Shown here: piece by piece, positions 1,267 through 35,804 of the stretch | Position numbering within the stretch: the first letter of the stretch is position 1 | How the letters are laid out: each line of letters opens with the position of its first letter | Origin: Schizochytrium sp. TIO01 | Taxonomy: Eukaryota > Protista > Bigyra: Labyrinthulomycetes | Length of the DNA: 64,000 bases | Assembly (NCBI GenBank): GCA_004764695.1 | Contig: SMSO01000032.1 | Coordinates: 5,984,483-6,048,482 of the forward strand | Direction: 5' to 3' | Position numbers and translations under genes: made by a program | Notes under the pieces: generated by a model | What the model was told of the DNA's origin: nothing | The model's database searches: none | The model's input: only the letters and a program-made list of their open reading frames with translations

Positions 1267-1287
1267 ATCAATTAAATAGAGTTCATA

Positions 1288-1743
1288 TTATCTTCTTAAT
1301 GAGACTAATCGTTCACCAAGCGCATTGTTTAGAAGAATTGCCATCTTATTCGCACATTCATCAGACAAAGCCGTATTATCATCCAGGATATGAAATGGGT
1401 CGAACATTTCGAACAATTTTTCGTTTAGAAATAGAAAATCGGTCGTGATTTTCATCATGTACTCAACATACTCTATAAGCATTTCACGCGAAACAATGTT
1501 ATTCTTCAATTCGAAATGAAATGTGTTCGCAAGTTTTTCAAACGATTCCTCTTGGTGGCTTAGAAATAAAAAGTACTCGAAAATGGCGAACAAAACCATT
1601 TTCTCAGAAATCAAAGCTTCGAGCGAAGTTGCATTCAAGTGTTTACGATATTTCATGCATAATAGAATCAGATCATCAAGCACTTCGTGGTTCTTGACAA
1701 ATCTAAGCCATGCAAATAGAAACACATTCATTGCTTCGTCCAT
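1288..1743 (-). CDS. Hypothetical protein, 151 aa
   Basis: ATG ORF tiling tightly between neighbours, preceded on its strand by a (CCAAAA)n tract; no recognised motif. Confidence 0.6.
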   Translation of the reverse strand: MDEAMNVFLFAWLRFVKNHEVLDDLILLCMKYRKHLNATSLEALISEKMVLFAIFEYFLFLSHQEESFEKLANTFHFELKNNIVSREMLIEYVEYMMKITTDFLFLNEKLFEMFDPFHILDDNTALSDECANKMAILLNNALGERLVSLRR

Positions 1744-1780
1744 ATTGATGCAGCTAGTAAATGCAAAGTGTCTAACTTAA

Positions 1781-1858
1781 GTTTTGGTTTTGGTTTTGGT
1801 TTTGGTTTTGGTTTTGGTTTTGGCTTCGGTTTTGGTTTTGGTTTTGGTTTTGGTTTTG
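1781..1858. repeat. (GGTTTT)n / (CCAAAA)n hexamer tandem repeat between divergent genes
   Basis: Directly read: about 13 units with one GGCTTC variant. Confidence 0.95.
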
Positions 1859-1935
1859 CTGTGTCTAGCACAAAATAAAACAATACATGAATCAAGTGCT
1901 CTGCGGATTATTGATAGTAAATACCATAATACATC

Positions 1936-2445
1936 ATGACAATCATTGAGGAACAGATTGAGAAGGTGGCGGAAGATTCTGTGACAGAAGCAAAAGAACT
2001 AGGTGATCCTACCGAGGAACATCCGAAGAACATTGAGGAGAGTGACACAAATACAAATTCTCCAAATGAAGAGCCAGAAGCAAAAGAACTAGGTGATTCT
2101 ACTGAGGAACACACGGAGAACATTGACACAAATACAAGTTCTTCAAGTGAAGAGCCAGAAGCATTTGCGCAAAAGCATACTTGTAAAATAGTGTGCAATG
2201 TGGAAGGGAATGATGAAACCTTTTATCTAACTACTCTTCCAAGATTTGCAATCCTTTCTGGAAATTTATGGAAACCATTAGATCCTAAGTTTTACATTAA
2301 GAGAATTTTCGAGGAACAGGAATCTACCTCAGACCATGGTTACAACGGGTGGATTGTTTTTGATCGGACTACCAAAGCAATCCTATGCTCAGTTGATACC
2401 GAAGGAAACGAGCAGGAAATTATTACATTTGATCCAAAGCCCTAA
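1936..2445 (+). CDS. Hypothetical acidic protein with an internal ~90-bp duplication
   Basis: EAKELGD(P/S)TEEH...DTNT...EEP occurs twice; DNA CAGAAGCAAAAGAACTAGGTGAT at 1985 and 2075. Confidence 0.7.
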   Translation: MTIIEEQIEKVAEDSVTEAKELGDPTEEHPKNIEESDTNTNSPNEEPEAKELGDSTEEHTENIDTNTSSSSEEPEAFAQKHTCKIVCNVEGNDETFYLTTLPRFAILSGNLWKPLDPKFYIKRIFEEQESTSDHGYNGWIVFDRTTKAILCSVDTEGNEQEIITFDPKP

Positions 2446-2682
2446 GTATCTTTTATAATTATGAAGAGACAATTTACTTCGGGATAACAAATAGAATTAC
2501 TCTTTTAACACTTGCCAAAAGCTATTCGATGTCCGAATTCCCAGACTTTGTCGTGCGTTGTACGCGTCAACAGAAGCTCTGCGGAACATCGGTGAAACTG
2601 ATCTTCACCGTTCTACACTCGTTGACTTATCTAACCTTCCTTTTCACACGGTTGCCGAAAAGGAAGCACGGGAGAACAATTT

Positions 2683-4365
2683 TTAATCAGGGTATCCTCC
2701 AGGTGCCCACCATAACTTTTGTCCTAGATAATTATTTACTAGTGTCTCCCCATCGTTATAACTAATGATAGCCGATGGGATAGTTGGCACATCCTCATTA
2801 CCATAATATGTTGGATTGAAAATCGAATTCGTTGCATTAATCAATCTTATAACAACTGCTACTGCACCCTTAGCCTCTGCTAGCTTTACTTTATCAAAGA
2901 AGTCACAGCCGCCCCGTTTGACCACCACAATCTTCCCACTAAACCCGTTTTTCTGACCACTACTATCACATAATGTTTCATCACCATTTGGTAGTATAGT
3001 TTGTGCATAAACTCCCTCTACACCGGGGGTGATTTCTGGCCCGAAGGAACTTGATGCGAAATCAAAACATGTGTCCTCCGCTGAACACATTTTCACAGAC
3101 TGATAGAGTGGGCTCAATGTCGGTTGAGGTGTTGGTGTCCATATCTCCCCTGCTCGTTGTACTCGAACCACAGATAAAATATTAAGCTCAAACCAATCAG
3201 GATCATCACTCGTTCCTTTGCTAGAGAATGCTGTTAGTTCATCTAATGCGGCTTGTTTGTCAAAATTATACTTTTGTAAATATGTAGCCATGACACCTGA
3301 AACAAGTGGTGCTGCCATACTCGTTCCAGACATAACCGCTGTCCCACCAGACTTGTAAGTTGATGTGATTGCCTGGCCTGGGGCCCAAACGTCAACACAC
3401 GAACCATAATTGGAAAATGATGCCCCATAATCATTACCAGCACTATCCCTCGCAAGCGCACCAACATTGATAACTCCATTTGCGGTTCCAGGTGAAGAAC
3501 AACATGCATCCTCAGCGTCATTTCCAGCTGCTACGACAACAATATTTCCAGCCTCAATCACGTCTTCTACTAGAGAATTTATACTTTTCGAGTAATCAGA
3601 ACCCACTGACAAATTAACCACATTGGTCTTATCTGAACCGTAGGTTTGTTCAATTACCCACTGAAGTCCGCCAATGAGATTCGATGACGGAAATGTTATA
3701 GATGCACCTCCAACTTTCACAGCAATACCTGTTGCCCCTCGCGCAACGCCATATGTATCAGCTAATGCTGTTCCAGCAACATGTGTACCGTGACCATTCT
3801 CATCCGTAGTAACATTACTATAAGACCAACCGAACGAAACCCGTCCACCAAAAGATCCGTGATCAATATAAACACCAGTATCTACAATATAGATCACAAC
3901 ACCGCTACCATCATATTCTAAATCCCAATTAAGGTTATCCAACGGCTGCTGAAATTGATCAATTCGATCCAAATTTGACAGAATATGTGTCTGTACTACT
4001 TGGTCGGCATGAATTTCTTCTATCCAGTAAAATTGATCGAGTAGGGAATTTGCATCTAAATAATCAGACGAAACACTAATGAAACAGTTCATTCTCGATT
4101 TCAATTGTCCAATGACTCGGGTATTTAAGCTACCTTCAAAATAGTTTTCAAATTCTTGATAAGCTACGTCACACTGGGTAGCCTTGTTCACCTCTATGAT
4201 CCACATTAGAGAATCATTATTTTGCTCATCAATCGCCTGGTTTCCAACAGAAAGTTCCTCACTTGTTGTTTGTGTAGAACATAAGAGTATCAACAATACC
4301 CCTATCGATATTGAAGCCTTCCAGAACATCTGACTTTGACTTTTGAAATTATACTTCTTATTCAT
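2683..4365 (-). CDS. Secreted subtilisin (peptidase S8, proteinase K-like) with C-terminal PA domain
   Basis: Signal-like hydrophobic stretch; catalytic motifs IVDTG, NGHGTHVAG, GTSMAAP and oxyanion AAGND; PA motif GKIVVVKRGGCDFFDKVKLAEAKGAVAVVI. Confidence 0.95.
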   Translation of the reverse strand: MNKKYNFKSQSQMFWKASISIGVLLILLCSTQTTSEELSVGNQAIDEQNNDSLMWIIEVNKATQCDVAYQEFENYFEGSLNTRVIGQLKSRMNCFISVSSDYLDANSLLDQFYWIEEIHADQVVQTHILSNLDRIDQFQQPLDNLNWDLEYDGSGVVIYIVDTGVYIDHGSFGGRVSFGWSYSNVTTDENGHGTHVAGTALADTYGVARGATGIAVKVGGASITFPSSNLIGGLQWVIEQTYGSDKTNVVNLSVGSDYSKSINSLVEDVIEAGNIVVVAAGNDAEDACCSSPGTANGVINVGALARDSAGNDYGASFSNYGSCVDVWAPGQAITSTYKSGGTAVMSGTSMAAPLVSGVMATYLQKYNFDKQAALDELTAFSSKGTSDDPDWFELNILSVVRVQRAGEIWTPTPQPTLSPLYQSVKMCSAEDTCFDFASSSFGPEITPGVEGVYAQTILPNGDETLCDSSGQKNGFSGKIVVVKRGGCDFFDKVKLAEAKGAVAVVIRLINATNSIFNPTYYGNEDVPTIPSAIISYNDGETLVNNYLGQKLWWAPGGYPD

Positions 4366-4396
4366 ACATATCTAAAATATTTTTTAATATCAACTT

Positions 4397-5422
4397 CTAT
4401 ATAAGATCCATAATAGAATCGACTTTCTCTTGACCCATGAGTTTAACTGACGCATTATATAATTGCTTCAATGCAAGCTTTCTAGTAGCGTAGCCTCGAA
4501 TAGCTTCGAACTTCTTGTCCAAAGGATGGACCTCTTCTGAGTTACACTTACGTTTCTTTTGAGACGGAACTTCATCATTATCGAGAGCAAGATTTAATTT
4601 ATCGTCAAGGTTGAGTCTTTTTGCATGATACTTAAGAGAGTATACTACGTTGTTGAGACGAGCATAACCCAGAAGATTTTCATCATTGAAACCCTGAATC
4701 GTACACATAACCGTTAGGTTGTTGGCCTCAGCTTGAGTTGCGTACTTTTCGTATATAGCCTTTAGGTGCTCTTTTTCGAGTTTATGAAGCTCCGGGTTGC
4801 TAATATCGCCCACGAATGATAACTTAAACGTCTTAAAACGAGGTAGATGTTCCAAAACGAGGCTGACAATCCTATCGTAAGAAGGACCATTAGTCACATA
4901 GATAGGATAAACATGTATGACAAGATTCTCAACCTGTTCCGGAAGATTCTCAAAGAGACCAAATAAATCACCAGCGCGAAGATTGCCAATCTCAAGTGAA
5001 CGAAGTTTTGGGAAGTCAATGAGAACTTCAAACTTACGTAGATCATAGCCAAACACCTCTTTGTGTAAAATCGTCAAATATTCAAGCTCAAGAGACACTG
5101 AATCGTCGAGTATCTTCCAGATCGAGGGCATATCTACTTCAATGCCCCTCAACCGAAGGTGGCACGTGTGTACCTTACTGGTAGAGAACTTTTTAATAAT
5201 TTTTCTCAAGCTCTTTGTCGAAGAGTATCCATCTTGTCTAGGACAAATGTCAATAGTGCGAATGTGGTATACCTTTCGAAAATGGAGATCTAGTCTACCT
5301 TTGATTTCATACAAGCTTATAAATTCAGGTATACAAAATACGCTATTCTCCTCATCATCAAGTCCAGAAATTATTTCATTTATAAGGGACTCAGCCTCAT
5401 CTTCTTCCGACATACCCCACAT
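4397..5422 (-). CDS. Tandem paralog 1 of a ~342 aa family: LRR/RNI-like repeats plus basic NLS-like motif
   Basis: LEYLTI, FPKLRSLEIGNL and LPRFKTFKLSF LRR-like segments; QKKRKC; clear paralogy with the next two ORFs. Confidence 0.8.
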   Translation of the reverse strand: MWGMSEEDEAESLINEIISGLDDEENSVFCIPEFISLYEIKGRLDLHFRKVYHIRTIDICPRQDGYSSTKSLRKIIKKFSTSKVHTCHLRLRGIEVDMPSIWKILDDSVSLELEYLTILHKEVFGYDLRKFEVLIDFPKLRSLEIGNLRAGDLFGLFENLPEQVENLVIHVYPIYVTNGPSYDRIVSLVLEHLPRFKTFKLSFVGDISNPELHKLEKEHLKAIYEKYATQAEANNLTVMCTIQGFNDENLLGYARLNNVVYSLKYHAKRLNLDDKLNLALDNDEVPSQKKRKCNSEEVHPLDKKFEAIRGYATRKLALKQLYNASVKLMGQEKVDSIMDLI

Positions 5423-5474
5423 TGGTGTTTGGTGTTTGGTGTTTGGTGATTGGTGTTTGGTGTTTGGTGATTAG
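5423..5474. repeat. (TGGTGTT)n heptamer tract directly upstream of paralog 1 start
   Basis: Directly read; equals (CCAAACA)n on the coding strand. Confidence 0.9.
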
Positions 5475-5535
5475 CTAATGATGTAAAGTAAAAATGTTGA
5501 TTTATTCCATTATTTAAACATCTTCCAGGAATATT

Positions 5536-6567
5536 CTAGAAACGGTTCAAGATTGAATCGGCTTTATCTTGACCCATGAGTTTTACGGACGCATCGTATA
5601 CTTGCTTCAATGCAACCTTCCTTGTAGCGTAGCCTCGAATAGCTTCAAACTTCTTGTCCACAGGATGGACCTCTTGTAAGTTACACTTACGTTTCTTTGG
5701 AGACGGAGCTTCATCCTCGTAGTCTCTATCTAGAGCAAGACTCAATTCTCCGTCAAGTTTTAATCCTTTTGCCTCCTCCATAAAACTATCGACTACGTGA
5801 TTGAGACGAACATAGCCCAATAGATTTTCATCCTCTAAACCTTGAATGGTGCACATGGATGTCAGGTTGTTGGTCTCAGCTTGGGTTGCGTATTTTTCGT
5901 ATAGAGCCTCTAGTGATTCTTTTTCGAGTTTAAGAGGCGCTGAGTCGCTAGTCTCCCCCGCGAACGATAACTTAAACGTCTTAAAACGAGGTAGATGTTT
6001 CAAAACGAGGCTGACAATCTGATCGTAAGAAGGACCATAAGTCGTGTTGAGTGCGTGAACATGAACGACAAGATTCTCAACTTGCCTCGGAAGATTCTCA
6101 AAGAGACCACGTAAAGAATCAGCGAGAAGATCGCCAATCTCAAGTGAACGAAGCTTTGTGAAGCGTTTGAGAACTTCGAACTTACGTATATCAAAGTAAA
6201 ACACATTTTCGTGCATAATACTCAGTTTTGTGAGAGAGTTACCCCACACTGCACTGATTGTTTGCCAAATTAATAGCATCTCCACATCCAAACCTTCCAA
6301 TTGTAGGCGACAATCAAGCACCGGGCTATGTCTAAACTTTTTGATTATATAGATCAATTCAATAGTCACATCGCGACTATCTCTCCGAGGATCAATATTG
6401 AAGGTGCGAATATGCTCTATGGGTTCAAGACACATATTCAATTCTTTTTTGAATTCGTATAGATAGATGACATTGGTTATACCAAAATAGGTCATTTCTT
6501 TATCATCAAGATCGTCAAGGAGTTCATAGACATGATCTTCAACCTCATCTGCCGTCAACTCAGCCAT
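5536..6567 (-). CDS. Tandem paralog 2 (LRR-like, NLS-like PSPKKRKC)
   Basis: 343 aa; C-terminal half nearly identical to paralog 3. Confidence 0.8.
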   Translation of the reverse strand: MAELTADEVEDHVYELLDDLDDKEMTYFGITNVIYLYEFKKELNMCLEPIEHIRTFNIDPRRDSRDVTIELIYIIKKFRHSPVLDCRLQLEGLDVEMLLIWQTISAVWGNSLTKLSIMHENVFYFDIRKFEVLKRFTKLRSLEIGDLLADSLRGLFENLPRQVENLVVHVHALNTTYGPSYDQIVSLVLKHLPRFKTFKLSFAGETSDSAPLKLEKESLEALYEKYATQAETNNLTSMCTIQGLEDENLLGYVRLNHVVDSFMEEAKGLKLDGELSLALDRDYEDEAPSPKKRKCNLQEVHPVDKKFEAIRGYATRKVALKQVYDASVKLMGQDKADSILNRF

Positions 6568-6589
6568 TTTTATTGGCGAAGAATGTTCT

Positions 6590-6718
6590 TGGTGTTTGGT
6601 GTTTGGTGATTGGTGTTTGGTGTTTGGTGTTTGGTGTTTGGTGTTTGGTGTTTGCCGTTTGGTGTTTGGTGTTTGGTGTTTGGTGATTGGTGATTAGTGA
6701 TTAGTGATTGGTGATTAG
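6590..6718. repeat. Long (TGGTGTT/TGGTGAT)n heptamer tract upstream of paralog 2
   Basis: Directly read. Confidence 0.9.
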
Positions 6719-6779
6719 TTAATGATGTAAAGTAAAAATGTTGATTTATTCCATTATTTAAACATCTTCCAGGAATATT

Positions 6780-7811
6780 CTAGAAACGGTTCAAGATTGA
6801 ATCGGCTTTATCTTGACCCATGAGTTTTACGGACGCATCGTATACTTGCTTCAATGCAACCTTCCTTGTAGCGTAGCCTCGAATAGCTTCAAACTTCTTG
6901 TCCATAGGATGGACCTCTTGTAAGTTACACTTACGTTTCTTTGGGGACGGAGCTTCATCCTCGTAGTCTCTATCTAGAGCAAGATTCAACTCTCCGTCAA
7001 GTTTTAATCTTTTTGCCTCCTCCATAAAACTACCGACTACGTGATTGAGACGAACATAGCCCAATAGATTTTCATCCTCGAAACCTTGAATGGTGCACGC
7101 ACTTGTCAGGTTGTTGGTCTCAGCTTGGGTTGCGTATTTTTCGTATAGAGCCTCTAGTGATTCTTTTTCAAGTTTAAGAGGCACTGGGTCACTAGTCTTC
7201 CCCACGAACGATAACTTAAACGTCTTAAAACGAGGTAGATGTTTCAAAACGAGGCTGACAATATGATCGTAAGAAGGACCACAAGTTGTGTTGGGTACGT
7301 GAACATGAACGACAAGATTCTTAACCTGTCTCGGAAGATTCTCAAAGAAACCACATAAAGAATTAGCGAGAAGATCGCCAATCTCAAGTGAACGAAGTTT
7401 TGTGAAGTGTTTGAGAAGTTCAAACTCACGTAGATCATGGCCAAACACCTCTTCGTGCAAAATAGTCAAATATTCAAGCTTAGAAGAGAATGAATCTTTG
7501 AGTATATTACGGATCGTGGGCATATATAATCCAAGGCCTCTCAGCTGAAGGTGACATGTATGTACCTTACAGGGGAAGAATTTTTTCAGAATTTTTCCCA
7601 AGCACCTTGTCGGAGAGCATCCAACTCGCCTAGGATCAATCTCAATAGTGCGGATGTGGTCTATTCTTTGGAAATGGAAATCTAGTCTACGCTTGATTTC
7701 ATACAAGCTTATACATTCCGGTATACAAAATACGCTATTCTCCTCATCATCAAGTCCAAAAATTATTTCATCTATAAAGGACTCAGCCTCATCTTCCGTT
7801 AGATCCCACAT
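6780..7811 (-). CDS. Tandem paralog 3 (LRR-like, NLS-like PSPKKRKC), mosaic of paralogs 1 and 2
   Basis: N-terminus matches paralog 1 (GLDDEENSVFCIPE); C-terminus matches paralog 2 (KLMGQDKADSILNRF). Confidence 0.8.
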   Translation of the reverse strand: MWDLTEDEAESFIDEIIFGLDDEENSVFCIPECISLYEIKRRLDFHFQRIDHIRTIEIDPRRVGCSPTRCLGKILKKFFPCKVHTCHLQLRGLGLYMPTIRNILKDSFSSKLEYLTILHEEVFGHDLREFELLKHFTKLRSLEIGDLLANSLCGFFENLPRQVKNLVVHVHVPNTTCGPSYDHIVSLVLKHLPRFKTFKLSFVGKTSDPVPLKLEKESLEALYEKYATQAETNNLTSACTIQGFEDENLLGYVRLNHVVGSFMEEAKRLKLDGELNLALDRDYEDEAPSPKKRKCNLQEVHPMDKKFEAIRGYATRKVALKQVYDASVKLMGQDKADSILNRF

Positions 7812-7851
7812 TGGTGTTTGGTGTTTGGTGTTTGGTGATTGGTGTTCGGTG
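7812..7851. repeat. (TGGTGTT)n heptamer tract directly upstream of paralog 3 start
   Basis: Directly read. Confidence 0.9.
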
Positions 7852-7976
7852 CTTTAAAATAATTTCAAGGGTTATACCAGGAACATTCAAAGAACATTCT
7901 AGAAAAAAATCACAAAAGTATATGCTTTACATACATATCAAATATACATTATTTAAAATACATAATGTAATTCTGA

Positions 7977-8519
7977 ATGGGGATCTATGACAAATCATTA
8001 CTCGTGCGTCGCCACCGGGAACTCTCATCATGTCCTGGATACACTGCTACCCCAGCCCCTACCAGGCGGAATACACCAACTGCTCAACCAACTACCCCTA
8101 TACCTACACGAAACCCTACCACAAAGAGTCCTACTACAAATTCACCTACATCAAAACCTACAACCCAAACTCCTACGACTTTCCATCCAACTTACAAACC
8201 AACTACACCTATTCCTACATCAAAGAGTCCGACGGCACAACCGACTAACTCTCCTACAACTGAACCAACTCTCCCGACGGGCTTTCCAACTAAATACCCG
8301 ACGTTCTATACAAGTAGTCCAAAACCAACGACGTCTGTAACATTTGAATCTACCAACTCCTATGAAGGACTAACGATCGGAATTGGTGTTGCTTGTGGTT
8401 TTTTGTTTCTAGTTCTATTCAGCTGTTTGTGCTATGTTTGTTCTAGAAGGAAACGTAGGTTGAATAACTACACTCGTGTTGGAAATACAATACAACACAC
8501 ATCTATGCCACTTTTGTAA
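7977..8519 (+). CDS. Small Thr/Pro-rich mucin-like membrane protein
   Basis: PT repeats, TM segment LTIGIGVACGFLFLVLFSCLCYVC, then basic stop-transfer RRKRR. Confidence 0.75.
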   Translation: MGIYDKSLLVRRHRELSSCPGYTATPAPTRRNTPTAQPTTPIPTRNPTTKSPTTNSPTSKPTTQTPTTFHPTYKPTTPIPTSKSPTAQPTNSPTTEPTLPTGFPTKYPTFYTSSPKPTTSVTFESTNSYEGLTIGIGVACGFLFLVLFSCLCYVCSRRKRRLNNYTRVGNTIQHTSMPLL

Positions 8520-8534
8520 AATAATGTGCAAGGT

Positions 8535-8603
8535 CCAAAACCAAAACCAAACCCAGAACCAAAACCAAACCCAGAACCAAAACCAAAACCAGGACCAAAA
8601 CCA
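8535..8603 (+). repeat. (CCAAAA/CCAGAA)n tract upstream of Cys-rich paralog A
   Basis: Directly read; it produces the spurious PKPKPNPE extension in the ORF track. Confidence 0.85.
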
Positions 8604-8621
8604 ACACTCTCGAGATCAATT

Positions 8622-9056
8622 ATGAAAGAAAATGAGTGTGAGTCGTGTCCGAATGATGTCCCACCAGGAACAATTCGTATTCCTTGTAATCTGTGCAATG
8701 GATATGTATGTGGCATATTGGACTGTGTCCTGGATGAAAAGGAAGGTTGTTGCCAGTGGTGTATCCGTTACAACCCTGAAATCCGAGATTTAAAAACATG
8801 TGCCTTTTGCGGTGAAGAATTCATTGATACAAAATGGATCAGGAAGGAATGCCCGGATTGCTCGACCGTTTTCAAATACCCGTATTGTTTTAACTGTGTA
8901 GAAGAGCCGACACAGTTTGATTGTAGGTGCTGTGGAAAGGCTATGAACAAAGTTTGTGAAGCTTGTGATATGGACCTGGAAGCCTCTATATTTGAGTGTA
9001 CTTCAATGTGCAAACCTTGTTCAAGGACTAACCCCGATAAAAGACATAAACAGTAA
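8622..9056 (+). CDS. Cys-rich (multiple CxxC, zinc-binding-like) protein, paralog A, 144 aa
   Basis: Start reassigned to ATG 8622 because the N-terminus MKENECESCPND is shared with paralog B; many CxxC pairs. Confidence 0.75.
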   Translation: MKENECESCPNDVPPGTIRIPCNLCNGYVCGILDCVLDEKEGCCQWCIRYNPEIRDLKTCAFCGEEFIDTKWIRKECPDCSTVFKYPYCFNCVEEPTQFDCRCCGKAMNKVCEACDMDLEASIFECTSMCKPCSRTNPDKRHKQ

Positions 9057-9129
9057 CTTTTATTTTTTTATAGACATAGGTGTCCGACCCTTAGAATTGT
9101 CAGCAAATCCAAAACTCTTGAGTTCAACC

Positions 9130-9561
9130 ATGAAAGAAAATGAATGCGAGTCGTGCCCCAATGATCTCCCACCCGGAACGACCCGTATTCCCTGTAGTGG
9201 GTGCAACGGGTGTGTTTGTGGTATCTTAGATTGTGTCTTAGATGAATATTTTGGATTTTGTCGATGGTGCATTGATCGCTTTAAAGTAGTCGAATGTAAT
9301 AATTGTTTACAACCATTTCAAAATAGTCCTGCCGTTGAATGTGGAGAATGCTGCGCAACACAAGACCCATCAATATGTCAAGACTGTCTGGATAAGGCAA
9401 CTATATATACTTGTGGTTGTGGAAGAGGTTTGAACGACCTATGCATCGTGTGTAGTGTTAACACTCAAGTATGTCCTTGCTGCAATGAAATCAAGTGTCA
9501 TAAATGCTTTGACGGAGCCATGCACTACTCATGTAATAAATGTGCTACCCGTAACTCATAA
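9130..9561 (+). CDS. Cys-rich (multiple CxxC) protein, paralog B, 143 aa
   Basis: ATG 9130; MKENECESCPNDLPPGTTRIPC..CNG.VCGILDCVLDE shared with paralog A; conserved upstream ACTCTYGAGWTCAA. Confidence 0.75.
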   Translation: MKENECESCPNDLPPGTTRIPCSGCNGCVCGILDCVLDEYFGFCRWCIDRFKVVECNNCLQPFQNSPAVECGECCATQDPSICQDCLDKATIYTCGCGRGLNDLCIVCSVNTQVCPCCNEIKCHKCFDGAMHYSCNKCATRNS

Positions 9562-9715
9562 ATCATTATAAATATTAAGTAAAATTTTGACTTAAAAGAT
9601 AAATTATTCTTAGTATTATCCTCAATTGAGCACGGCTCGTAATGAAAATATATTTTGACAAACTTATTAAATTATTTATTCCAGTGGGAGTAGCTTGATG
9701 TTACAGAGAGACACC

Positions 9716-10070
9716 CACGTGAAGGTACTATATTCCCATCACGGTCCCAGTCTTCACGCGTGAAGGTACTATATTCCCATCACGGTACCATGTCTTCACG
9801 CGTGACGGTCCCAGTCTTCACGGCGTGGGTCCCAGTCTTCACGGCACGGTCCCAGTCTTCACGCGACCTTTCTACGGGTCGTAAAAATAAAAGGAAAAAC
9901 TTTTAAATTAAAAAAATTTCACGCCCCTCACAAGAATTTGAATTTCTTCCCAGTGGGGGTATGTGAGGGATGTGAGGGCGTGATGAAAGAATTAACGTGA
10001 ACACTTTAAGGTGGTAAAAAAATTAATTTTTCTTCACGCCCATATTAATTGTTAATAGTTGCGTGAAAAG
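9716..10070. repeat. Subterminal repeat array built on TTCACG(C): direct repeats, palindrome and inverted repeats
   Basis: 28-bp direct repeat at 9718 and 9759; GGTCCCAGTCTTCACG at 9743, 9807, 9828 and 9848 (variant at 9784); perfect palindrome CTTCACGCGTGAAG at 9752-9765; inverted pairs 9917-9932/9971-9983 and 10031-10039/10061-10070 in AT-rich spacers. Confidence 0.9.
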
Positions 10071-10084
10071 ACCTTAAGTTGGCC

Positions 10085-10160
10085 CTCCGTAGTAAAGTCG
10101 CGTAGGGCCGGGTCAGTAGTATGATAGGGGACTGCATGCGAAGCCCCGGTGTTGAATGTT
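10085..10160 (+). rRNA. 5S rRNA gene, 5'-truncated (approximately nt 44-119 only)
   Basis: TCCGTAGTAAAGTCGCGTAGGGCCGGGTCAGTAGTATGATAGGGGACTGCATGCGAAGCCCCGGTGTTGAATGT aligns without gaps to eukaryotic 5S nt 45-118. Helix V (GCCGGG/CCCGGT), loop E (TCAGTA/GAA) and helix IV (GTATG/CATGC, TAG-GGGA-CTG) all pair. The upstream 43 nt lack CATAC and the partners of helices I and II. Confidence 0.9.
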
Positions 10161-10203
10161 TTTTTCCTTTTTTTTTCTTTTTTTTTTTCCCGTTTTTCCC
10201 TTT
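10159..10203 (+). terminator. Oligo-dT RNA polymerase III terminator after the 5S fragment
   Basis: Several long T runs immediately after the 5S 3' end. Confidence 0.8.
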
Positions 10204-11405
10204 CGAACAACTAAAAAACAGGCAACATCATTGTGCAGAGTCTAAATCTCCTTGAACGCATGCTAATGATATACGTCAGCGAGCTTGTTCACTCGTGCAA
10301 GGCGCCTATTTTCATCGACTAAATCACTTGTACGCAGGGCAAAGTTTGCATTCCGATCACCATTTCGTATGCAAATCGACTAGACTGACAATGAGGTGGT
10401 CGCAGACGCTTCACCATAGCTTTCGCCAAGCCTCTGGGACTTGATACTTCAGACGAACCATTTGTGCTGTGCTCAGCTCCTGTGCAATATTTTAAATTAC
10501 ATTTGTCTCCTTCTACAAGTTTTTTTGCCTATTCGACAGTGTATCTGGAAAATAAACTAATGATTATCTTGGCCCCCAAAAGAAAAGTATTCCTATTAGG
10601 TGTCCTTTTAAATGCAAAGATTTTCTTTGCATTCTGCAATTGTATTGCAAGTTAGCGTGAGGCGTTCACCAAGAGATATCTTGTCCGAGTGGGATGTTGA
10701 ACGTTCTACTTATAGATACATACCTATGTACACACTTAGCTGTGATACTTCAATTGATTGTCAAGAGAACACTGCACTCGCATCCCTGCTCCTGAGCTTC
10801 GAGAGGTATAGAAAGCTAGCAATTTAAGGGTTCTGCCTGTCCAAAACAAATGAATAAAGTCTGATCATTTCCGAATCTTGTTCCTCCTTATCTCCCTTCT
10901 CTCCTTTGTTTTGTTCTCGGAAAGAAATAGGGACTCAATAAAATTAGTCCTCCATAACTGTGTTCTTGTTAAGAGGTGGATAATGATCTTGTGATAACAG
11001 CACTGCCCTCATCGTGTTTTGCTACCTCAAAATCTGTAGATAGGTAAGTAGACAGGACTCCAATCGGCCCAAGTTTGTTTGAAGACTTTTCACGGTTAGA
11101 AAACATCAAGAGAGGTCAAACACACAACCTCTGTCTCGTTGTAGCCTGCACCCTCCTTTATGCAGAGCTACAACAATATCATATCTAGTCTTTCGAAGTG
11201 TGCGAGAGGAAGGAGGACGAAATTGACGACGATCCAAACCCAAATTTGTTTATTATTGGGACGCTGTTATTCTTTTTTGCGCGTGTGTTGCCATATCCAC
11301 TGCAGAACCGGCCCAAACCCAAGAGAAACGTAGAACCAAAACAAGAAGAAGAAAACAAACGTACCAGACCCAGAAAACAAAATGGCTTGGCTACCGAATT
11401 TCTAA

Positions 11406-11822
11406 ATGGATTACGAAAAAGAAGAGGATGTTGGATTTCATCAAGACAACATTGAATACTCTCTTGAGTTACTTAGTGAGACTGTCGTTCTATTTGCGTA
11501 CAAGTATGATAATGCCAAAGTGGCCATGTGCGTTTCCCCTGCTGCGCACGAGGTGCTCCCTATTGAAGAGTCTGATCTAGCCTTAATTGAAGAAGACGGG
11601 GATAGGGTTTACATTGCACCAGCCCGGCTGCGCGGCTTTCTAGGCGAAATTTGCCTCCCCGAGCTAGACATTGACTGTCTAGGAGACATCCAAAAGCAGG
11701 ACATTTCTTACGGCAATTATCTCTTTGATGTCACACTCTCTAGCACCTTGATTACCGGTGCGAACGATGGTGTCATTTTTGACGTGCGGCTCTCCAGAGA
11801 ACGAATGGAACCTTGGGTTTAA
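11406..11822 (+). CDS. Hypothetical acidic protein, 138 aa
   Basis: ATG ORF with globular-looking composition, A/C-rich leader and AT-rich trailer; no recognised motif. Confidence 0.55.
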   Translation: MDYEKEEDVGFHQDNIEYSLELLSETVVLFAYKYDNAKVAMCVSPAAHEVLPIEESDLALIEEDGDRVYIAPARLRGFLGEICLPELDIDCLGDIQKQDISYGNYLFDVTLSSTLITGANDGVIFDVRLSRERMEPWV

Positions 11823-11991: not shown

Positions 11992-12732
11992 ATGACCAGC
12001 CTTGACTTGAGTGAACTAGCGCGAGAAGCAAGGAGTCGCTGCGAACTGCAAAACGGCCCCTTGATAACTTGGTTTTTACAGCGAGTAGCCCTGGAAACCG
12101 AAGAAAAAAACAGAACCAACCTCGTTGAAGCTTACAAGTTCGCAATGCATTATGATGGCGGCCTTTCCTTTTCGTTTCTCTGCAAACTTAACGCAATCAT
12201 CCTCGGCCAGCCCCACAGCAGCAGCAAATTGCGAAGTGCATCCGCATTCTCATTCAGGCGTCACCAAATTACCTGTGATTTGACGAGAATTCCTCTTGTT
12301 CATCCAACCCCTGGGCTTCTTGATCGCGCACTGAGGAATCTCATTATAAAATACCAAACCACACCTTTCTCGATCACAGGAAAGCAAGATGTAAAAGATA
12401 TAGAAGCCGCCGCATTGCAAGATGCTTTGCACGTTGCGACAGATTTTATAGCAAGGTTCCTGTTTCTCAAACCCTTTGCATTTGGCAATGGAAGGACCGC
12501 TCGTGTGCTCTTTTCGTGGTTACTTAACTCCTTTGTCCCGGGCCCAATTCCATTGCTTGGACCCTCCCAAGACTACGCCGAAGCGACTAAAGTAACAGCA
12601 GCAGCAGCAGCAGCAGTGGATCCGTTGGCATTGTTCGAAACTTGCCATCAATCCAAAGACAAGCAGCGGTTCAGTGAGTACACAAGTTCTGCAGTGGAAA
12701 ATCACTTGCGAGAGATCCTCTCCGTAACCTAA
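11992..12732 (+). CDS. Fic/Doc (Fido) domain protein with a non-canonical active-site motif
   Basis: FLFLKPFAFGNGRTARVLF versus canonical HPFx(D/E)GNGRxxR; preceding helical Fic-like segments (LCKLNAIIL, KLRS). Confidence 0.85.
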   Translation: MTSLDLSELAREARSRCELQNGPLITWFLQRVALETEEKNRTNLVEAYKFAMHYDGGLSFSFLCKLNAIILGQPHSSSKLRSASAFSFRRHQITCDLTRIPLVHPTPGLLDRALRNLIIKYQTTPFSITGKQDVKDIEAAALQDALHVATDFIARFLFLKPFAFGNGRTARVLFSWLLNSFVPGPIPLLGPSQDYAEATKVTAAAAAAVDPLALFETCHQSKDKQRFSEYTSSAVENHLREILSVT

Positions 12733-12835: not shown

Positions 12836-14770
12836 TCAAAAAACTTGTTTGATTTTTTCGCCTTTCAAGAGCTTGACGAGGTTCTCCTTCTCAAGCCTTG
12901 CGCGGACTTGAAAGAACCGACCATCAAGGTCGTCGTATATCCCTGAATGACTGAAGTCGATAAAAATTGCCTTCTCAGGATCGTCCTTCGACTTCAGGAT
13001 GTTCGGAAGTCTCAGGTCGCCATGCAAAACACCACGCGCGTGTATCTTGTCTAGGGCATCCTTGACGCTTGTCTTGAACTCTTCAGTGAGAGAATCAAGA
13101 GATTCATACGAGAGTGGCTCACCTGCATAAGAGGTAGCAAAACCATACGGCAATCCATCAGTATCAGTAATGGAGCCATGGCCCAGGTATTTGGGAATAC
13201 AATCCCCCTGCAAGTCAGACAGGTTTGCGTAGACTTCAGCTTCAAAATCGATCTGGTTGAGACGCCAATCAGCATCTTCGTGATCGCCGAAATCGTCGTA
13301 TTTAACCACTGCTCGCTCGCCCATGATCTCACACTCAACTGCGCTACCTGTGTAGCAGTCAGAAATGTGCTTGCACTCGTAGAGATCACCCCAGGTGATG
13401 GGAGTGTCATGCTCTTTGTAAAGGAGGTTGTTCCGCCGCACCCCCCTTGCACCTCCTCTAAGTCCACCTCCCCCACCTCGATTCTGCGTTTGTAGCTGGT
13501 CTTGATCCCATTTACATTTCCTGGGAAGGTCGGTGTGAGGAACAGAACGACCATGCATCGTGCAACCTTCTGAGCCTGTGCACGACACCAAGATGCCTTT
13601 TCCTCTATCATCTAAAAATTGTGGCACTTCTCCCTTCAAAGCAATCATAGTAACTAAGGCAAGGAACTGTGGTATACTTAGTCCATATCGTGTCATAGAG
13701 TGTCTTCCTGGGAGCATCGGCGTTGTAGCAAGGTTACCTTCGCAATCTCGGAAGAAAGCTGCAGTGAACATATAGTTGGAGTAAACACCAACAAACTTGC
13801 CGGACTGGACCATATAGTTATACAACTGTCTAATTGGAGACACAGGGTGGTGTCTCTCGGAACCAGTGCATTCATCATGGTTTGCATCCGCACTACACCA
13901 GCGGTCAAAAAATTCATTGTTCGAAGAACCAAGACCCTTCAACTCACCAACAAGTGAAACATCGAACAGATGCGCTTGATCTTGTATGATAGTCCCAACA
14001 ACAAAGTCTGGCTTTAAAGCCTTGCGTCCATCCTTTACCGGGTAGTCCGACGTATAGCCGAGCTGGACACTTCCAGTTCCTTCTTCGACGGGCAAAACAC
14101 TGGTGACTGCTTGGAAAACTTGTGAAAAACAAAGCCCAATGGAACTCTCGGACCTAAGGAAAAGAGACTGCATTGAATGACAGAGTAGACTATCAACATT
14201 TAGACTCGTTGCTTCTTCCTGGAGCTTGCTCACAAATCCTTCATCGATACAGTGCTTCATGAATCTTCCGATGTCAACTTTGATGACGCTTGCAGGGGCA
14301 AAAATGTAGTTTTCGCTAATAACGGCGGTGCTCGATACAGTTTGCGAAACATGTTGAGGGATTCTAGGTAAAGCGCACCCAAGGGATTCCCAAACTGATC
14401 CGGAGAAGCGCGAAATGCTTTCTCCTTCTTCACCGCCTCCAGACTCAAATTCCTCAATCTTTCCCTCGGTTTTCTCGATTTTAACTCGGGCTTCCTTCAT
14501 ATCAGATGCTATGCGCAGAGCTCCAAGGATCTGATCTTCTTCATCGCAACCATCAAAATTGTGTTCGATGTCTTCCTTCTCAATTTTATCTGCGAGATAT
14601 CTTTCGAGCTCCTTACGTGCACCCATCGTGGTAATTTCCCTTTTCAGCTCTCGGAATTCATCTTCAAGTTTTTCAAGTCTAGCCTGTTCAGTTTTTAGAC
14701 GGTCATGATAGAGGGCAAGTCGGTTAAGCATCCCCGCGTTGTCAGTTCGCTGCGATGAGCGACTGCTCAT
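12836..14770 (-). CDS. Coiled-coil + PD-(D/E)XK nuclease-like + Cys cluster + protein kinase (Spok/Crinkler REase-kinase-like); start uncertain (ORF open to 14860)
   Basis: Coiled coil RLKTEQARLEKLEDEFRELKRE; KPDFVVG...VGELK...IRQLYNYM; kinase VVK, EAEVYANLSDLQGDCIPKYLG, HGDLRLPNIL, FIDFS. Confidence 0.85.
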   Translation of the reverse strand: MSSRSSQRTDNAGMLNRLALYHDRLKTEQARLEKLEDEFRELKREITTMGARKELERYLADKIEKEDIEHNFDGCDEEDQILGALRIASDMKEARVKIEKTEGKIEEFESGGGEEGESISRFSGSVWESLGCALPRIPQHVSQTVSSTAVISENYIFAPASVIKVDIGRFMKHCIDEGFVSKLQEEATSLNVDSLLCHSMQSLFLRSESSIGLCFSQVFQAVTSVLPVEEGTGSVQLGYTSDYPVKDGRKALKPDFVVGTIIQDQAHLFDVSLVGELKGLGSSNNEFFDRWCSADANHDECTGSERHHPVSPIRQLYNYMVQSGKFVGVYSNYMFTAAFFRDCEGNLATTPMLPGRHSMTRYGLSIPQFLALVTMIALKGEVPQFLDDRGKGILVSCTGSEGCTMHGRSVPHTDLPRKCKWDQDQLQTQNRGGGGGLRGGARGVRRNNLLYKEHDTPITWGDLYECKHISDCYTGSAVECEIMGERAVVKYDDFGDHEDADWRLNQIDFEAEVYANLSDLQGDCIPKYLGHGSITDTDGLPYGFATSYAGEPLSYESLDSLTEEFKTSVKDALDKIHARGVLHGDLRLPNILKSKDDPEKAIFIDFSHSGIYDDLDGRFFQVRARLEKENLVKLLKGEKIKQVF

Positions 14771-15249: not shown

Positions 15250-17968
15250 GGAAGGACTAATGGAAGGTCGAATTTCGTGCCTCGAGAACCTTCAATTTCG
15301 AAGCCAATTCACCAGTTTTCTCTTGCAAATTCCGAGAAACAGTCAACACTCTCTCAAAAGCACCAACGATAGACCTCGTTGAAGGTCTCCGTACGAGATT
15401 CGACGGCTTCTCGGGGCGCAGAGCCATCCTTGTTTTATCTTCTTCAACTCTGCACGTGCTGACAGAATTCCGGATTTACCTGCAACGAAAAACACCCACT
15501 TTCACTCAACAAGAGATTACATCCTAGATCTAGCCAGACCAACAGAGCTCAGAATAACACGCGACGTGCTCGATCGATAGAAATCCAAACGTGTCAATTA
15601 CGCGTGCTTCAATCTGAGAGGGACATTCGTTTTGCTTGAGCAAGCGTGATTGTCCTTTCCCCCTTTCAGCTTTACCAGAACCCGAAAGCGATCTTTCCAT
15701 TTGCGTACCTCAAAAATCTTTTAAGGGAAGAGAGATCGAAAATCTTTTACCTCGAAAGAAATGAAATGACAAAAGTAAAAGTTTTTCCAGGGGTGACATC
15801 TAAGATGGCCTACCGCAAATTTTCTTTCTCTCGACTTTATTGTTTTCGAGGGTACTTCCTTTTCGAAATGAGAATTTGCCCTCTCCTTGAACCCCCTTTC
15901 CCTACCATTCCCAGTTCTTGTTTCCCCTCATCCTGATTCATTTCATTTCTGATAAGACGTCTTCAAATTGGTGGGAGTGAGTGATCGGGCGATCTCAAAA
16001 GCAATTAATTGAAGAGAAGAAGCTTATGGTCAATGTCACACCTCAACACTTTTAATTATTATTTAAAACAAGAATTTGTTTTATTTAATTTAAAATCAAG
16101 TTTTAAATAAGGCTCGACCTTTTTCGACTAGACTACTTTTGAGTATAACTTTATAATTAAAATCTAATTCAAGTCCTTCATTCACTCCAAGCATGATTAT
16201 AAAGATTGAGTAGCGCATATTCTGAATGACGTTGCCGAATGAAGACTCTCCCTTTCACTGATTCTCTCTTTATTCTTTTATTCTTTTCTTTTTTTTTAAA
16301 GGGCGATTGTCAAAGGAGCCTGTACCAAACATCAGATCTGCGTTGCTACACATCAACTCGTTTTTACGAATTTTGCAGAAATTCTCAATCAAACTTAGGT
16401 CCTTTAAGTCACTAAATTAGAAGGTCAAAGTCCAGTCAACATAGACACTGTCAGTAAGTGTCCTTCGTGTTTAAATTCTAGAGCTTCAACCCGCCCACAT
16501 GACATGGCCATTAATTCACGAACACTGGCTTCATGAATTTGGTTGTACTTTTCGAGTCCTTGACTTTCAAAAGTCTTTCGTTCGTGACAAGTGCACGTCC
16601 GACAACTCATAAGTTCAAGGGCGCTGACGCTATTTGTGCGTTCGAGTTCCATTTGCCAGGGCCACTATCTTAATAAGCAATTGAGTGTTGAGCTCACTCA
16701 TTAGGTATTGCCCATGCTGCAACAGCTCTGCATACTCTACCAGAAGGCACATCAGGATTCCCAATTGGGTAGCTCAAGTCCCTCCCTCAAGTCCCTCCCT
16801 CGGGAGGAAAATGCACGAAAAGAAGACAAAGTCTTTACAGTTTGAAAAGTAAAGAAAACTATTTCCTATTGGCATAAAAGTTGTAAACATTGTTCCCTGT
16901 CTGCAGACATTCAAGTTTTCTTTCTTTCTTTTTTCTTTCCAAAATTTGCATTCAATCTCCCAGTGTTTTTGATAGGCCTTCCTTCCTACCTAATCTGAAA
17001 TTATGTTAAACCTCACGTTGAGTTTGGGGAATCTTACAAGCGGCAGATAAAAGAAAGCTACGACATCTCTTTTTTATTCTTTATTATTTTTTTAATTTAT
17101 AAAATTAAAACATTTTTCTCTCTTAAAGATACCCACTCGACGTCATCACAAGCAACAACACGGTGGAGAAAATGCGCATGGCATACACACACGCAACCTC
17201 TCGAGGAGTACTCTGCACTAGCGCACTATTGGTCGTCTAGAGAGGCTTTGTATAAAGATTGTCATTCTTGTTAGGCAGCCTTCAGAACAGAAGCATTTGG
17301 GGATAACGGCGAAGGCGCTCTCACTAGTCAGAGGTAACAAGTTAACATCTTTTAGTTTATAACGTACCTACTCCCTTTCCACGCTCTCACTTGTCAGAGT
17401 CAACTCCTTGGGTTGAAATATAACATCTTTTAGCTTTGCTCTTGCCGGGTAGTGCCATCTCGGGGTGATTGCTGTGGTTTGAGTTACTGCCTAATTCTTA
17501 ATAATAATAAAATATAAAAATATTTAGAACATAGAAAGAAAGCACCTCAGGCTGTAAAAAAGAAAAGAAAAAAAAGAGTACCTCATATAATGAGGTCCGA
17601 GTTATTAGGAGTGCCTAGTAGTATACTCTCGACTGGCCCCGCGTATTGTAGATTTAGTCGGAGAGATTAAGAGCATAAACTGACTGCAGTATGGTAAATC
17701 CAACATTTCACGATTTACATCAGCATATAGGCGTATATTATATACATTATACCTTTAATTTTATTTATTTATTTATATAGTTAAAAATAATAGTGTACCT
17801 TGTGAATAACATTTCAAACTAAAATCAATGTCTTATAAATTAATATATATTTTAATAATCATTCAAATTCAAGTTGATAAATTTCTTTTTTTTAAAAAAG
17901 AAATAGCTAGAACAATTTGTTGGCAGCACCTGCAGAAAGCAAACCCCAAATTAGCTTCAATTCAAGCC

Positions 17969-20017
17969 ATGAGGCGGTTTGTCACAATCAGCTCGCCTCC
18001 CCCCTTGCCCAGGACCTGGGTAGGGCATGTAAATACACGCTCCGCTAGCTCAACAGTATCGCCTCTCGATATCTTACGTCATCCGATATTTTTGCATTCT
18101 AGCGATGTGGCAGAGTTCGAGAACCTAAAGGCCAAACGCATATCCTGTACCAAAGATATTGCGAGACTTAAGACGAGGATTCTGGAGAATCCCTCCAATG
18201 AAGACTGTGCGCTCAGCCGAAGCGAGCTGCGTTCTGACCGGTCCGGAACTGAGAAAGGTATGGAAGAGCAACCTGAAGAGCACTCCAGACTTGAAAGAGA
18301 ATGCTTGGAATCTGCAATGGACTTATGTTCGCAGATTCGATGCGCCGAGAAAAGAGGTGCGCGTCTCGATATAAGACTCAGGTACATTCAGAAGGAAACA
18401 ATAGAAAACGAAATGGTCATGTATCGGAGGCTCTATGGTCTTCGTAGGGAAGAGGCTGCATATAATTCCTTGCATAATCATAAAACCTCAGTACTCCAGG
18501 CACTCTCCAGTGCAACTCCTGAGTTACCTCGCAAAGAGTTACAGGTAAAGTGCTCTACTGACACTTCTGCATACCGTGCATCACCCATGCATGTTCATAA
18601 ATTGGAGATGGAAACTTTACTAAACTACTGTCGTGATGCTGGGTACATCGAAACTTTACAGGCAAGGCAAACTACGATTTCGCTAGAATCCTCAATACAG
18701 TACTTCAAGGATATAGGTACCGCAGGTGCATCTTCAATAATCCCACATATGTCTATTCTCTTGGGAGCAGTACTTGAAATCCTTCAAGACGGAGGAATTG
18801 AGCAAGTCACCGACACATCAAACCACCGTTTTGGAGACTACACCGAAACACGGGGCCCAGTGGATTTTGCAATTGGTTTAGAACCCTATGTGGATCAATT
18901 TAAACCTTGGGTCATTGGTGCACTTGAAAGACCTGAATTCCATCACGTTGATCTTTCTGATGAATACTGCAATCATGACTGTCGTGATGTCGATTGCACG
19001 TCACAACGTCATTCGAGGTTCTCAGTGATTCGTAAATTGTACACTTGGATGCTATGCAACAAGTCTCTAGTAGGTATCTACTCGAACTACTTCGATACAG
19101 CTCTGTTCTTTCGTGATTGCGCTGGCAATCTGCTAATTACACCATCTGTTAAATGTGATGCCGTGGGGGATATTGACAGAAACTGTCTAAGTGCAGCACA
19201 ACTTCTGGCACTGGGTATTATGATCGCAAAAGAGAACCGCGTACCAGAATTTACAAACAGCGAAGGGACGCTCCTTACGCCCTGCTCTAGTGAGTGTAGA
19301 CATGAAAAGCTACCCATGGGCTGCGAGGCTGAAAACGATGTTTACAAGGAAATTAACCAGGATACCAACGATGACGATTATGTCTTCAGTCTCGAAGTAC
19401 CTGACACAGAGTTCTACGGGCTTCCCCCCTCTCCAGATAAAAAAATCCCACCTCGGTCTGATTGGACATCTTTGCACCAACTGAAAGACGAAAAGTTCCT
19501 TGGCTGGTTTCGTCACGATGGTGAACCGGGAAGGATTTCCCGCTGTAAAATTCCGCATGCAACTAAAGGTAATGTAGATGCTGTACTAAAGTTGCTCGAT
19601 ACTTTCAAGGAATCGTATTTCGTCGACCATCTCAGGTTCGAAGCTATCGTTTACGATTCCTTGCTTCCGCTTCAAGGCAAGTGTGTACCAGAGTTTCTTG
19701 GTCTTGGATTGTTTCAAGATGGGTTCATGTACGGGCTTGGTTTAAGTTTTGCAGGCGAGCACGTTACAGATGACGACCTTACGGATAAGTTTAAGGAAGA
19801 GGCGGTAGCCGCTCTCAAGTCGATTCACTCACTTGGTGTTTTACATGGCGATATAGATCGCGACAATATTATGTGCAATCATGAGAAAGGCAAGAAGCCA
19901 ATGTTTATCGGCTTTGGTGAGGCCAAATTTAAGGAGGATATGGGTCTTGATGACTTTGCAAAAAGGGCTGACTCGGAAATCAGCTACCTCAAGAGAGAAC
20001 TAGAACGTAAACAGTAA
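17969..20017 (+). CDS. Paralogous coiled-coil + degenerate PD-(D/E)XK + kinase-like protein with a possible mitochondrial presequence
   Basis: IRKLYTWMLCNKSLVGIYSNYFDTALFFRDCAGNL matches IRQLYNYMVQSGKFVGVYSNYMFTAAFFRDCEGNL; FEAIVYDSLLPLQGKCVPEFLG, HGDIDRDNIM; DFG replaced by GFG; ATG 17969 begins MRRFVTISS...TRSASS. Confidence 0.85.
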   Translation: MRRFVTISSPPPLPRTWVGHVNTRSASSTVSPLDILRHPIFLHSSDVAEFENLKAKRISCTKDIARLKTRILENPSNEDCALSRSELRSDRSGTEKGMEEQPEEHSRLERECLESAMDLCSQIRCAEKRGARLDIRLRYIQKETIENEMVMYRRLYGLRREEAAYNSLHNHKTSVLQALSSATPELPRKELQVKCSTDTSAYRASPMHVHKLEMETLLNYCRDAGYIETLQARQTTISLESSIQYFKDIGTAGASSIIPHMSILLGAVLEILQDGGIEQVTDTSNHRFGDYTETRGPVDFAIGLEPYVDQFKPWVIGALERPEFHHVDLSDEYCNHDCRDVDCTSQRHSRFSVIRKLYTWMLCNKSLVGIYSNYFDTALFFRDCAGNLLITPSVKCDAVGDIDRNCLSAAQLLALGIMIAKENRVPEFTNSEGTLLTPCSSECRHEKLPMGCEAENDVYKEINQDTNDDDYVFSLEVPDTEFYGLPPSPDKKIPPRSDWTSLHQLKDEKFLGWFRHDGEPGRISRCKIPHATKGNVDAVLKLLDTFKESYFVDHLRFEAIVYDSLLPLQGKCVPEFLGLGLFQDGFMYGLGLSFAGEHVTDDDLTDKFKEEAVAALKSIHSLGVLHGDIDRDNIMCNHEKGKKPMFIGFGEAKFKEDMGLDDFAKRADSEISYLKRELERKQ

Positions 20018-35406: not shown

Positions 35407-35410
35407 ATCT

Positions 35411-35482
35411 GGGGGATTAGCTCAGCGGTAGAGTGGCGGATTCCAGATCCGTAGGCCAGGAGTTCAAATCTCTTATCCCTCA
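35411..35482 (+). tRNA. tRNA-Trp(CCA) copy 1
   Basis: 72-nt cloverleaf: acceptor GGGGGAT/ATCCCTC, anticodon arm GCGGA-TTCCAGA-TCCGT, T-arm AGGAG-TTCAAAT-CTCTT; followed by a T run. Confidence 0.95.
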
Positions 35483-35571
35483 TCCTTTTTTTCCTATTTT
35501 TTAAATTCAGAAATACCTTGTTTGAATCATTATAAATGCTTGGTGTCATCGTCCATCATACAGTGGTATAT

Positions 35572-35643
35572 GGGGGATTAGCTCAGCGGTAGAGTGGCGG
35601 ATTCCAGATCCGTAGGCCAGGAGTTCAAATCTCTTATCCCTCA
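35572..35643 (+). tRNA. tRNA-Trp(CCA) copy 2
   Basis: Identical to copy 1; T-run terminator. Confidence 0.95.
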
Positions 35644-35732
35644 TTCTTTTTTTCCCATTCTCCCACTTTTTTTCTTTAGTCCAAGCAGACTGTGTCTCTT
35701 TTATTATTCTGACATCGTTCGTCTAATAACGT

Positions 35733-35804
35733 GGGGGATTAGCTCAGCGGTAGAGTGGCGGATTCCAGATCCGTAGGTCAGGAGTTCAAATCTCTTATCC
35801 CTCA
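35733..35804 (+). tRNA. tRNA-Trp(CCA) copy 3
   Basis: One C>T difference in the variable loop (AGGTC); T-run terminator. Confidence 0.95.

Follow-up and report, generated by a model that had tools for sequence, protein, structure and literature searches.

A mirusvirus-like element that ends within a 5S rRNA gene: a candidate site of targeted integration in a thraustochytrid genome

How does a large, gene-dense element come to end midway through a 5S rRNA gene? The question is raised by a 64-kb stretch of DNA from Schizochytrium sp. TIO01 (contig SMSO01000032.1), the whole of which is called the window here. A sequence-only reading of the window had noted a 5S gene truncated at about position 10085 and proposed that a large DNA virus or giant element had been inserted there. 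The features at the break are the following.

10085-10160, forward strand: 5S rRNA nt 44-119 (covariance match, register alignment and pair counts)
10159-10190, forward strand: T-runs of the Pol III terminator (sequence)
10070-10099, unstranded: junction, with 5S nt 43/44 at 10084/10085 and a 6/7 dyad (10070-10076 / 10093-10099) centred on it

The covariance search suggested by the earlier reading (cmscan, RF00001) gave a match at 10045-10160 on the forward strand with 32.5 bits (E 1.3e-4). The gathering score is 38, which the match does not reach because its 5' part fails; at that threshold nothing is reported. As references for the register we used two kinds of intact 5S genes on metagenome contigs (L001 and L005). 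In ungapped alignment the window sequence is identical to these at 48/63 and 40/63 positions over nt 44-106, and at 10/43 and 12/43 positions over nt 1-43, a stretch in which the two intact kinds share 30 of 43 positions with each other. The 5S homology begins at nt 44, that is at 10085, with an ambiguity of 1-2 bases caused by a C run (10083-10085). All pairs of helix IV (8/8) and helix V (5/5) are kept, 13/13 together, with changes on both sides relative to the intact genes, loop E is conserved, and the T-run follows. The truncation, the replacement of the first ~43 nt and the position of the break in loop C upstream of box A, all claimed by the sequence-only reading, were thus borne out.

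Since helix III keeps 1 of its 6 pairs and the identity over nt 1-43 is as low as 10-12/43, 10085-10160 is a 5S fragment and not a gene, judged by its sequence: the intact 5' domain (helices I-III) is absent. An intact but divergent 5S is ruled out by the failing helix III and 5' invariants, and an evenly decayed pseudogene by the perfect 3' part. The 43 replacing bases can be paired as helix I (7/9 in register) and as helix II (8/8, the register being moved by 4 nt, out of 17 shifts tried), but this residual pairing is chance or mimicry and makes no working 5S. We relied on pair counts because the fragment does not stand out by its folding energy (z -0.4, against 0.0 for the same part of an intact 5S). 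The fragment retains the whole of what we take, by the usual numbering, to be the internal Pol III control region, i.e. box A, intermediate element and box C. The 6/7 dyad is centred exactly on the break; it was spotted after the fact and is weak alone.

A search with exact 11-mers found no second piece of this 5S, nor its 5' half, elsewhere in the 64-kb window. Pattern scans found no broken 5S gene among 12 loci in JGI metagenomes (0/12; all were intact, of two kinds, and none came from the host of the window), and 5S pattern scans of IMG/VR gave 0 matches. On ten of the metagenome contigs (L001-L004, L006-L010 and L012) a eukaryotic rDNA spacer links 28S, U6 snRNA and 5S, with U6 and 5S on opposite strands.

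The block to the left of the break carries the following genes.

1-1266, forward strand: C-terminal part of a membrane-anchored protein with PAN domain and Pro/Thr stalk (Pfam PF00024, E 2.9e-6; positional counterpart of AurliV-2 ORF478)
1288-1743, reverse strand: 151-aa ORF, orthologue of AurliV-2 ORF574 (16 differences in 151 residues by eye)
1936-2445, forward strand: 169-aa acidic ORF, orthologue of AurliV-2 ORF479 (near-identical by eye; coordinate offset)
2683-4365, reverse strand: S8 subtilase with PA domain, orthologue of AurliV-2 ORF910 (PF00082 and PF02225; ~23 differences in 400 residues compared)
4397-7811, reverse strand: three tandem ~343-aa paralogues (4397-5422, 5536-6567, 6780-7811), counterparts of AurliV-2 ORF757/908/907 in changed order
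7977-8519, forward strand: Pro/Thr-rich membrane protein, equal to AurliV-2 ORF145 (0 differences in 180 residues by eye)
8622-9561, forward strand: two Cys-rich paralogues (8622-9056, 9130-9561), the last genes in common with AurliV-2, where antisense ORF567 is listed

AurliV-2 (LE-Chr15) is the integrated mirusvirus of Aurantiochytrium limacinum MYA-1381 and belongs to the putative order Soporavirales (bioRxiv 10.1101/2023.06.15.545109; PMC12606086). We compared the window with its published ORF table (Supplementary Data 2 of PMC12606086), the proteins by eye and the coordinates by script. Positions 1-9561 are collinear with the right end of AurliV-2 gene for gene, in order, strand and spacing, and 16 anchor coordinates differ from those of AurliV-2 by offsets of 290,323-290,436. 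The proteins of the element are 89-100% identical in amino acids to those of AurliV-2 by eye. The incomplete first gene is matched to ORF478 by position alone: its end coordinate and the 22-bp gap to the next ORF agree with ORF478/ORF574. Judged by this collinearity, positions 1-10084 are the right end of a close but distinct relative of AurliV-2, so that the large DNA virus guessed at before can be given a name. It is probably a different viral strain, because the order of the paralogues differs.

The right end of AurliV-2, as its table presents it, is built differently from that of the window element, because ORF148 (300262-300768), which the window element lacks, spans the projected junction point (~300,455) and the published limits of AurliV-2 are 24,468-309,267 (bioRxiv 10.1101/2023.06.15.545109; PMC12606086). 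In the window an end-like array of repeats separates the last gene in common from the break, ~0.5 kb further on, in a genome of ~270 kb.

The composition of the block agrees in part with its earlier description as gene-dense and AT-rich: it is gene-dense, and its GC content of 40.7% is only mildly below the 43% of the adjoining DNA. The GpC observed/expected ratio is 0.81 in the block and 1.05-1.22 to the right, where none of the 26 2-kb tiles falls below 0.9. Exact database entries exist for 0/10 element proteins and for 3/10 right-side proteins; since the latter number is so low as well, the absence of the element proteins is weak evidence by itself. Protein scans of IMG/VR found no relative of the block. 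The best database matches of the subtilase have 39-41% identity, and none of the 80 loci with a relative of it has another gene in common with the block; the S8+PA subtilase family is common to several virus groups. The best of these loci (L013) is an unrelated nucleocytovirus-type contig, in which an S8+PA subtilase (9575-11449) lies beside a capsid-like gene region. The 343-aa paralogues share 59-72% identity with each other, the one at 5536-6567 differs from ORF907 at 17 of 343 residues by eye, and a search of three collections with one paralogue found no homologue. They have a C-terminal basic motif, PKKRK, that resembles a nuclear localisation signal, and a weak LRR-like lead in Atlas. 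The Cys-rich paralogues matched no family in Pfam or PHROGs, and no homologue of them was found. Upstream of divergent viral genes are two GGTTTT/AAAACC arrays (1780-1858 and 8535-8608), oppositely oriented, and each 343-aa paralogue has TTGGTG(T/A) arrays upstream of it; both may be telomere-like or promoter-like viral repeats.

The DNA to the right of the break forms one further feature.

10161-64000, unstranded: host flank, in which Fic and kinase-like genes are followed by housekeeping genes and five tRNA-Trp genes (domain and tRNA searches)

The Sin3 protein at the right end of the window has its best named match in Mucochytrium quahogii (66%), a carboxylase subunit encoded at 44974 falls into a 90% cluster with Hondaea, and three proteins of the flank are exact database matches. 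From these sequences we infer that the host is an Aurantiochytrium limacinum-like thraustochytrid (~46% GC), putatively of the same species as the host of AurliV-2. The genes at 11.4-28 kb (Fic and kinase-like) are not exact database entries and are host-like in GpC content. Two of the kinase-like genes (12836-14770 and 17828-20017), next to the Fic gene (11992-12732), resemble by eye AurliV-2 ORF915, a meiotic-drive-suppressor-type kinase listed as the highly expressed kinase of the virus (PMC12606086); the family is possibly shared by host and virus. Five tRNA-Trp(CCA) genes lie at 35410-37111, three of them at 161-bp spacing. No spacer repeats with a period of 350-530 bp occur in the window, and LORE-TEARS-type spacer repeats are thereby ruled out.

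In A. limacinum most chromosome ends have a 5S gene nearby, which points away from the telomere and in many cases borders on unique sequence; AurliV-2 is found at a left chromosome end, between rDNA sets (bioRxiv 10.1101/2023.06.15.545109). The order in the window is virus, 5S and unique host DNA, and it looks like that of a subtelomeric 5S with the virus on its telomere side; AurliV-2 is oriented in the same way.

Between the last shared gene and the break the element carries a number of repeats.

9716-9870, unstranded: terminal tandem array of a 41-bp unit (x2.1) and a 21-bp unit (x4), each with TTCACG (TRF, repeat search)
9845-9877, reverse strand: inverted near-copy of 5S nt 46-77 (24/33 columns, one gap), running into the 21-bp unit
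9917-10080, unstranded: two imperfect dyads (9917-9988; 10020-10080, the latter with AT-rich centre and TTCACGC/GCGTGAA arms; repeat search)

Of the 36 copies of TTCACG in the window, 11 lie within the 369 bp of 9716-10084, where 0.14 are expected, and the units are likely to be protein-binding sites. The inverted segment is most similar to 5S over nt 46-62 (15/17 at 9861-9877). Its local score is reached by 2/240 other tiles of the window, 25/5000 shuffled 5S sequences and 2/2000 shuffled ends (p ~0.001-0.008), which is suggestive of a likeness beyond chance but not certain. The symmetry patterns at and near the break were recognised post hoc. Four single matches to the 21-bp unit in IMG/VR showed no further likeness and were set aside as chance.

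The sequence-only reading had also proposed to look for a recombinase and viral hallmark genes in the element. None was found by Pfam and PHROGs among the 10 ORFs in the 10 kb of it that the window covers, and hallmarks such as the HK97-fold capsid protein, terminase, portal and PolB would lie outside it; a tyrosine-recombinase-like gene is, however, present in its published relatives. AurliV-1 has an expressed gene, ORF726 (792 aa, 220546-222924), with a homologue in Hondaea; in FoldSeek it matches an NDC10_II protein (E 2.1e-5) and FLP recombinase (E 1.7e-2; PMC12606086). The recombinase match is weak. Upstream of ORF726 the ORF table (Supplementary Data 1 of PMC12606086) leaves a 340-bp ORF-free gap, a candidate attP. 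In AurliV-2 the corresponding protein would be ORF16 (805 aa, 32803-35220, forward strand), whose listed sequence has by eye the motifs TTGLR, a lysine ~25 residues on and WTARRG, in a layout like that of ORF726. We take this layout to be the tyrosine-recombinase pattern. The dense gene block at the left end of AurliV-2, opposite to the end seen in the window, starts with ORF16, which reads inward; the row of ORF16 in the table carries no recombinase annotation (PMC12606086). Five kb outside it lies a lone kinase gene, ORF13 (PMC12606086), which may be viral because the Hondaea entries matched by it and by a viral protease have accession numbers close together; ORF16 therefore need not be the first gene. 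Thus, both A. limacinum mirusviruses seem, by these motifs and matches, to encode a predicted tyrosine-recombinase-like protein of ~800 aa, to which the available text of PMC12606086 makes no reference.

On balance we lean towards the explanation that 1-10084 reached 5S nt 44 when a circular viral genome was integrated site-specifically into a 5S gene of a subtelomere, through a predicted virus-encoded tyrosine recombinase, on the pattern of prophages, phaeoviruses and Starships. The attachment site of the circle would then contain the TTCACG array, adjacent to the recombinase gene, which would come to lie at the other end of the integrated element. A crossover in loop C would split the 5S gene, leaving nt 44-119 with promoter and terminator at the window junction, and the far end, on the telomere side, would have nt 1-43 or a reconstituted gene. 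The array would be bound by the recombinase or by a helper that also reads the similar sequence in 5S DNA, and the multicopy subtelomeric 5S genes would offer many harmless landing sites. 5S genes have an internal Pol III promoter and, since it is whole here, a chimeric Pol III RNA of ~120 nt, starting near 10042, is predicted. A break so soon after the last gene in common and, at once, within a gene of 119 bp would otherwise take two coincidences, which we count in favour of targeted integration. The evidence for this reading comes from one junction, at one end of one element, in assembly sequence.

The published proposal is that mirusviruses enter by subtelomeric recombination, by analogy with herpesviruses, and no integrase is named in the available text (bioRxiv 10.1101/2023.06.15.545109; PMC12606086). 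Carried over to the window, it would have the virus enter at a chromosome end, after which a deletion or ectopic exchange fused the virus end into the innermost 5S gene, with loss of ORF148, the spacer repeats and an rDNA unit. We regard this as unlikely, but as a serious contender. It has been proposed in print for AurliV-2, chromosome ends are recombinogenic and already carry 5S genes (bioRxiv 10.1101/2023.06.15.545109), and it fits with both the lack of spacer repeats in the window and the ORF table of AurliV-2, which has ORF148 and ~8.5 kb more before the stated limit. The deletion would nevertheless have to begin at most 0.5 kb from the last shared viral gene and to end in a 119-bp gene, and neither the inverted segment that resembles 5S nor the recombinase-like genes are explained. 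Moreover, protein divergence of up to 11% and the changed order of the paralogues oppose a recent shared insertion. Because the viral proteins differ by so much and in paralogue order, and three host proteins match exactly, the insertion is, as far as these comparisons go, likely to be separate from that of AurliV-2.

A variant that would still be targeted to 5S has the circular virus itself carry 5S nt 44-119. A crossover anywhere in the shared stretch, by homologous recombination or an integrase, would then rebuild a whole 5S gene at the far end, and 43/44 would be a viral feature and not the cut site. Prophages restore tRNA genes in the same way, 5S-like sequence is already found at the virus end, and AurliV-2 starts beside subtelomeric rDNA; yet the episomal AurliV-1 has no predicted rRNA genes (although a partial gene could escape prediction; bioRxiv 10.1101/2023.06.15.545109) and the 5S piece was not found in IMG/VR, and we consider the variant improbable. 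Least probable, and by our estimate very much so, is a chimeric assembly in which an episomal virus, or one placed elsewhere, was joined to the host contig at a 5S repeat. 5S genes are indeed multicopy repeats, and episomal mirusviruses are described as co-occurring in such cultures. A misjoin driven by a repeat, however, needs that repeat on both sides and would not make nt 44 coincide with an end-like array and the final viral gene, and the sequence is clean on both sides, with long intact ORFs.

The preferred reading, targeted integration, can be extended to the group as a whole, in a form that we hold to be nearly, but not quite, an even bet. Thraustochytrid mirusviruses would be temperate viruses, in which a so far unrecognised tyrosine recombinase of ~800 aa shuttles the genome between episome and chromosome, with dozens of subtelomeric 5S genes of the host as attB, cut at nt 43/44, and in which the virus end mimics the site by carrying the internal promoter of 5S inverted and amplified; AurliV-2, between its rDNA sets, would be one such insertion and no herpesvirus-like telomere accident. 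The junction suggests that these viruses are likely to insert at 5S genes by their own predicted recombinase and not by chance exchange of chromosome ends.

No report of a mirusvirus integrase or 5S target was found in the available literature, including PMC10827195, PMC12911909, PMC12768974, PMC10946416, PMC12747079 and two 2026 preprints, with subscription journals sparsely covered and mostly by the starts of abstracts; the available main text of PMC12606086 has 0 mentions of "5S r", "recombinase" and "integrase". The junction supplies a base-level target and a candidate enzyme for the chromosomal entry of mirusviruses, and it is open to a cheap test, considering that the host is a cultured model and long reads are public. 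If true, a relative of tailed phages and herpesviruses in eukaryotes would have a prophage-like integration system, 5S genes would have been used as landing sites on a further independent occasion, and a tool for large-cargo insertion in an industrial DHA-producing protist might be within reach.

Prophages and islands in tRNA or 5S genes likewise leave a partial RNA gene at one end; these are bacterial, and the gene is usually restored. AurliV-2 has the same terminal genes as the window element, in the same order, strands and spacing, and is likewise chromosomal and beside rDNA-type sequence. It has spacer repeats and rDNA to its right, where the window element has unique host DNA, and the base-level junction inside 5S has no described equivalent in the available text on AurliV-2 (bioRxiv 10.1101/2023.06.15.545109; PMC12606086). 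The phaeoviruses of brown algae are also large latent DNA viruses of eukaryotes, thought to integrate via a tyrosine recombinase with attP/attB, and have inverted repeats beside the site, to which the dyads seen post hoc at the window junction may correspond; they belong to the Nucleocytoviricota and not to the Mirusviricota, and their attB is described as only a CC or CG dinucleotide, with no RNA gene involved (PMC12993054). The giant Starships of the families Enterprise, Arwing and Voyager have a tyrosine recombinase at one end and insert inside the 5S coding region, which accounts for 23% of 222 sites, at no fewer than 5 target positions (at least 5; PMC11162782). Starships are fungal transposons without capsid genes that have a DUF3435 captain as their first gene and make short direct repeats, whereas the window element is related to a virus and sits in a stramenopile, and no such repeats are definable at its junction. 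The thraustochytrid host and the mirusvirus-type gene content rule out that it is a Starship; at most, it works like one.
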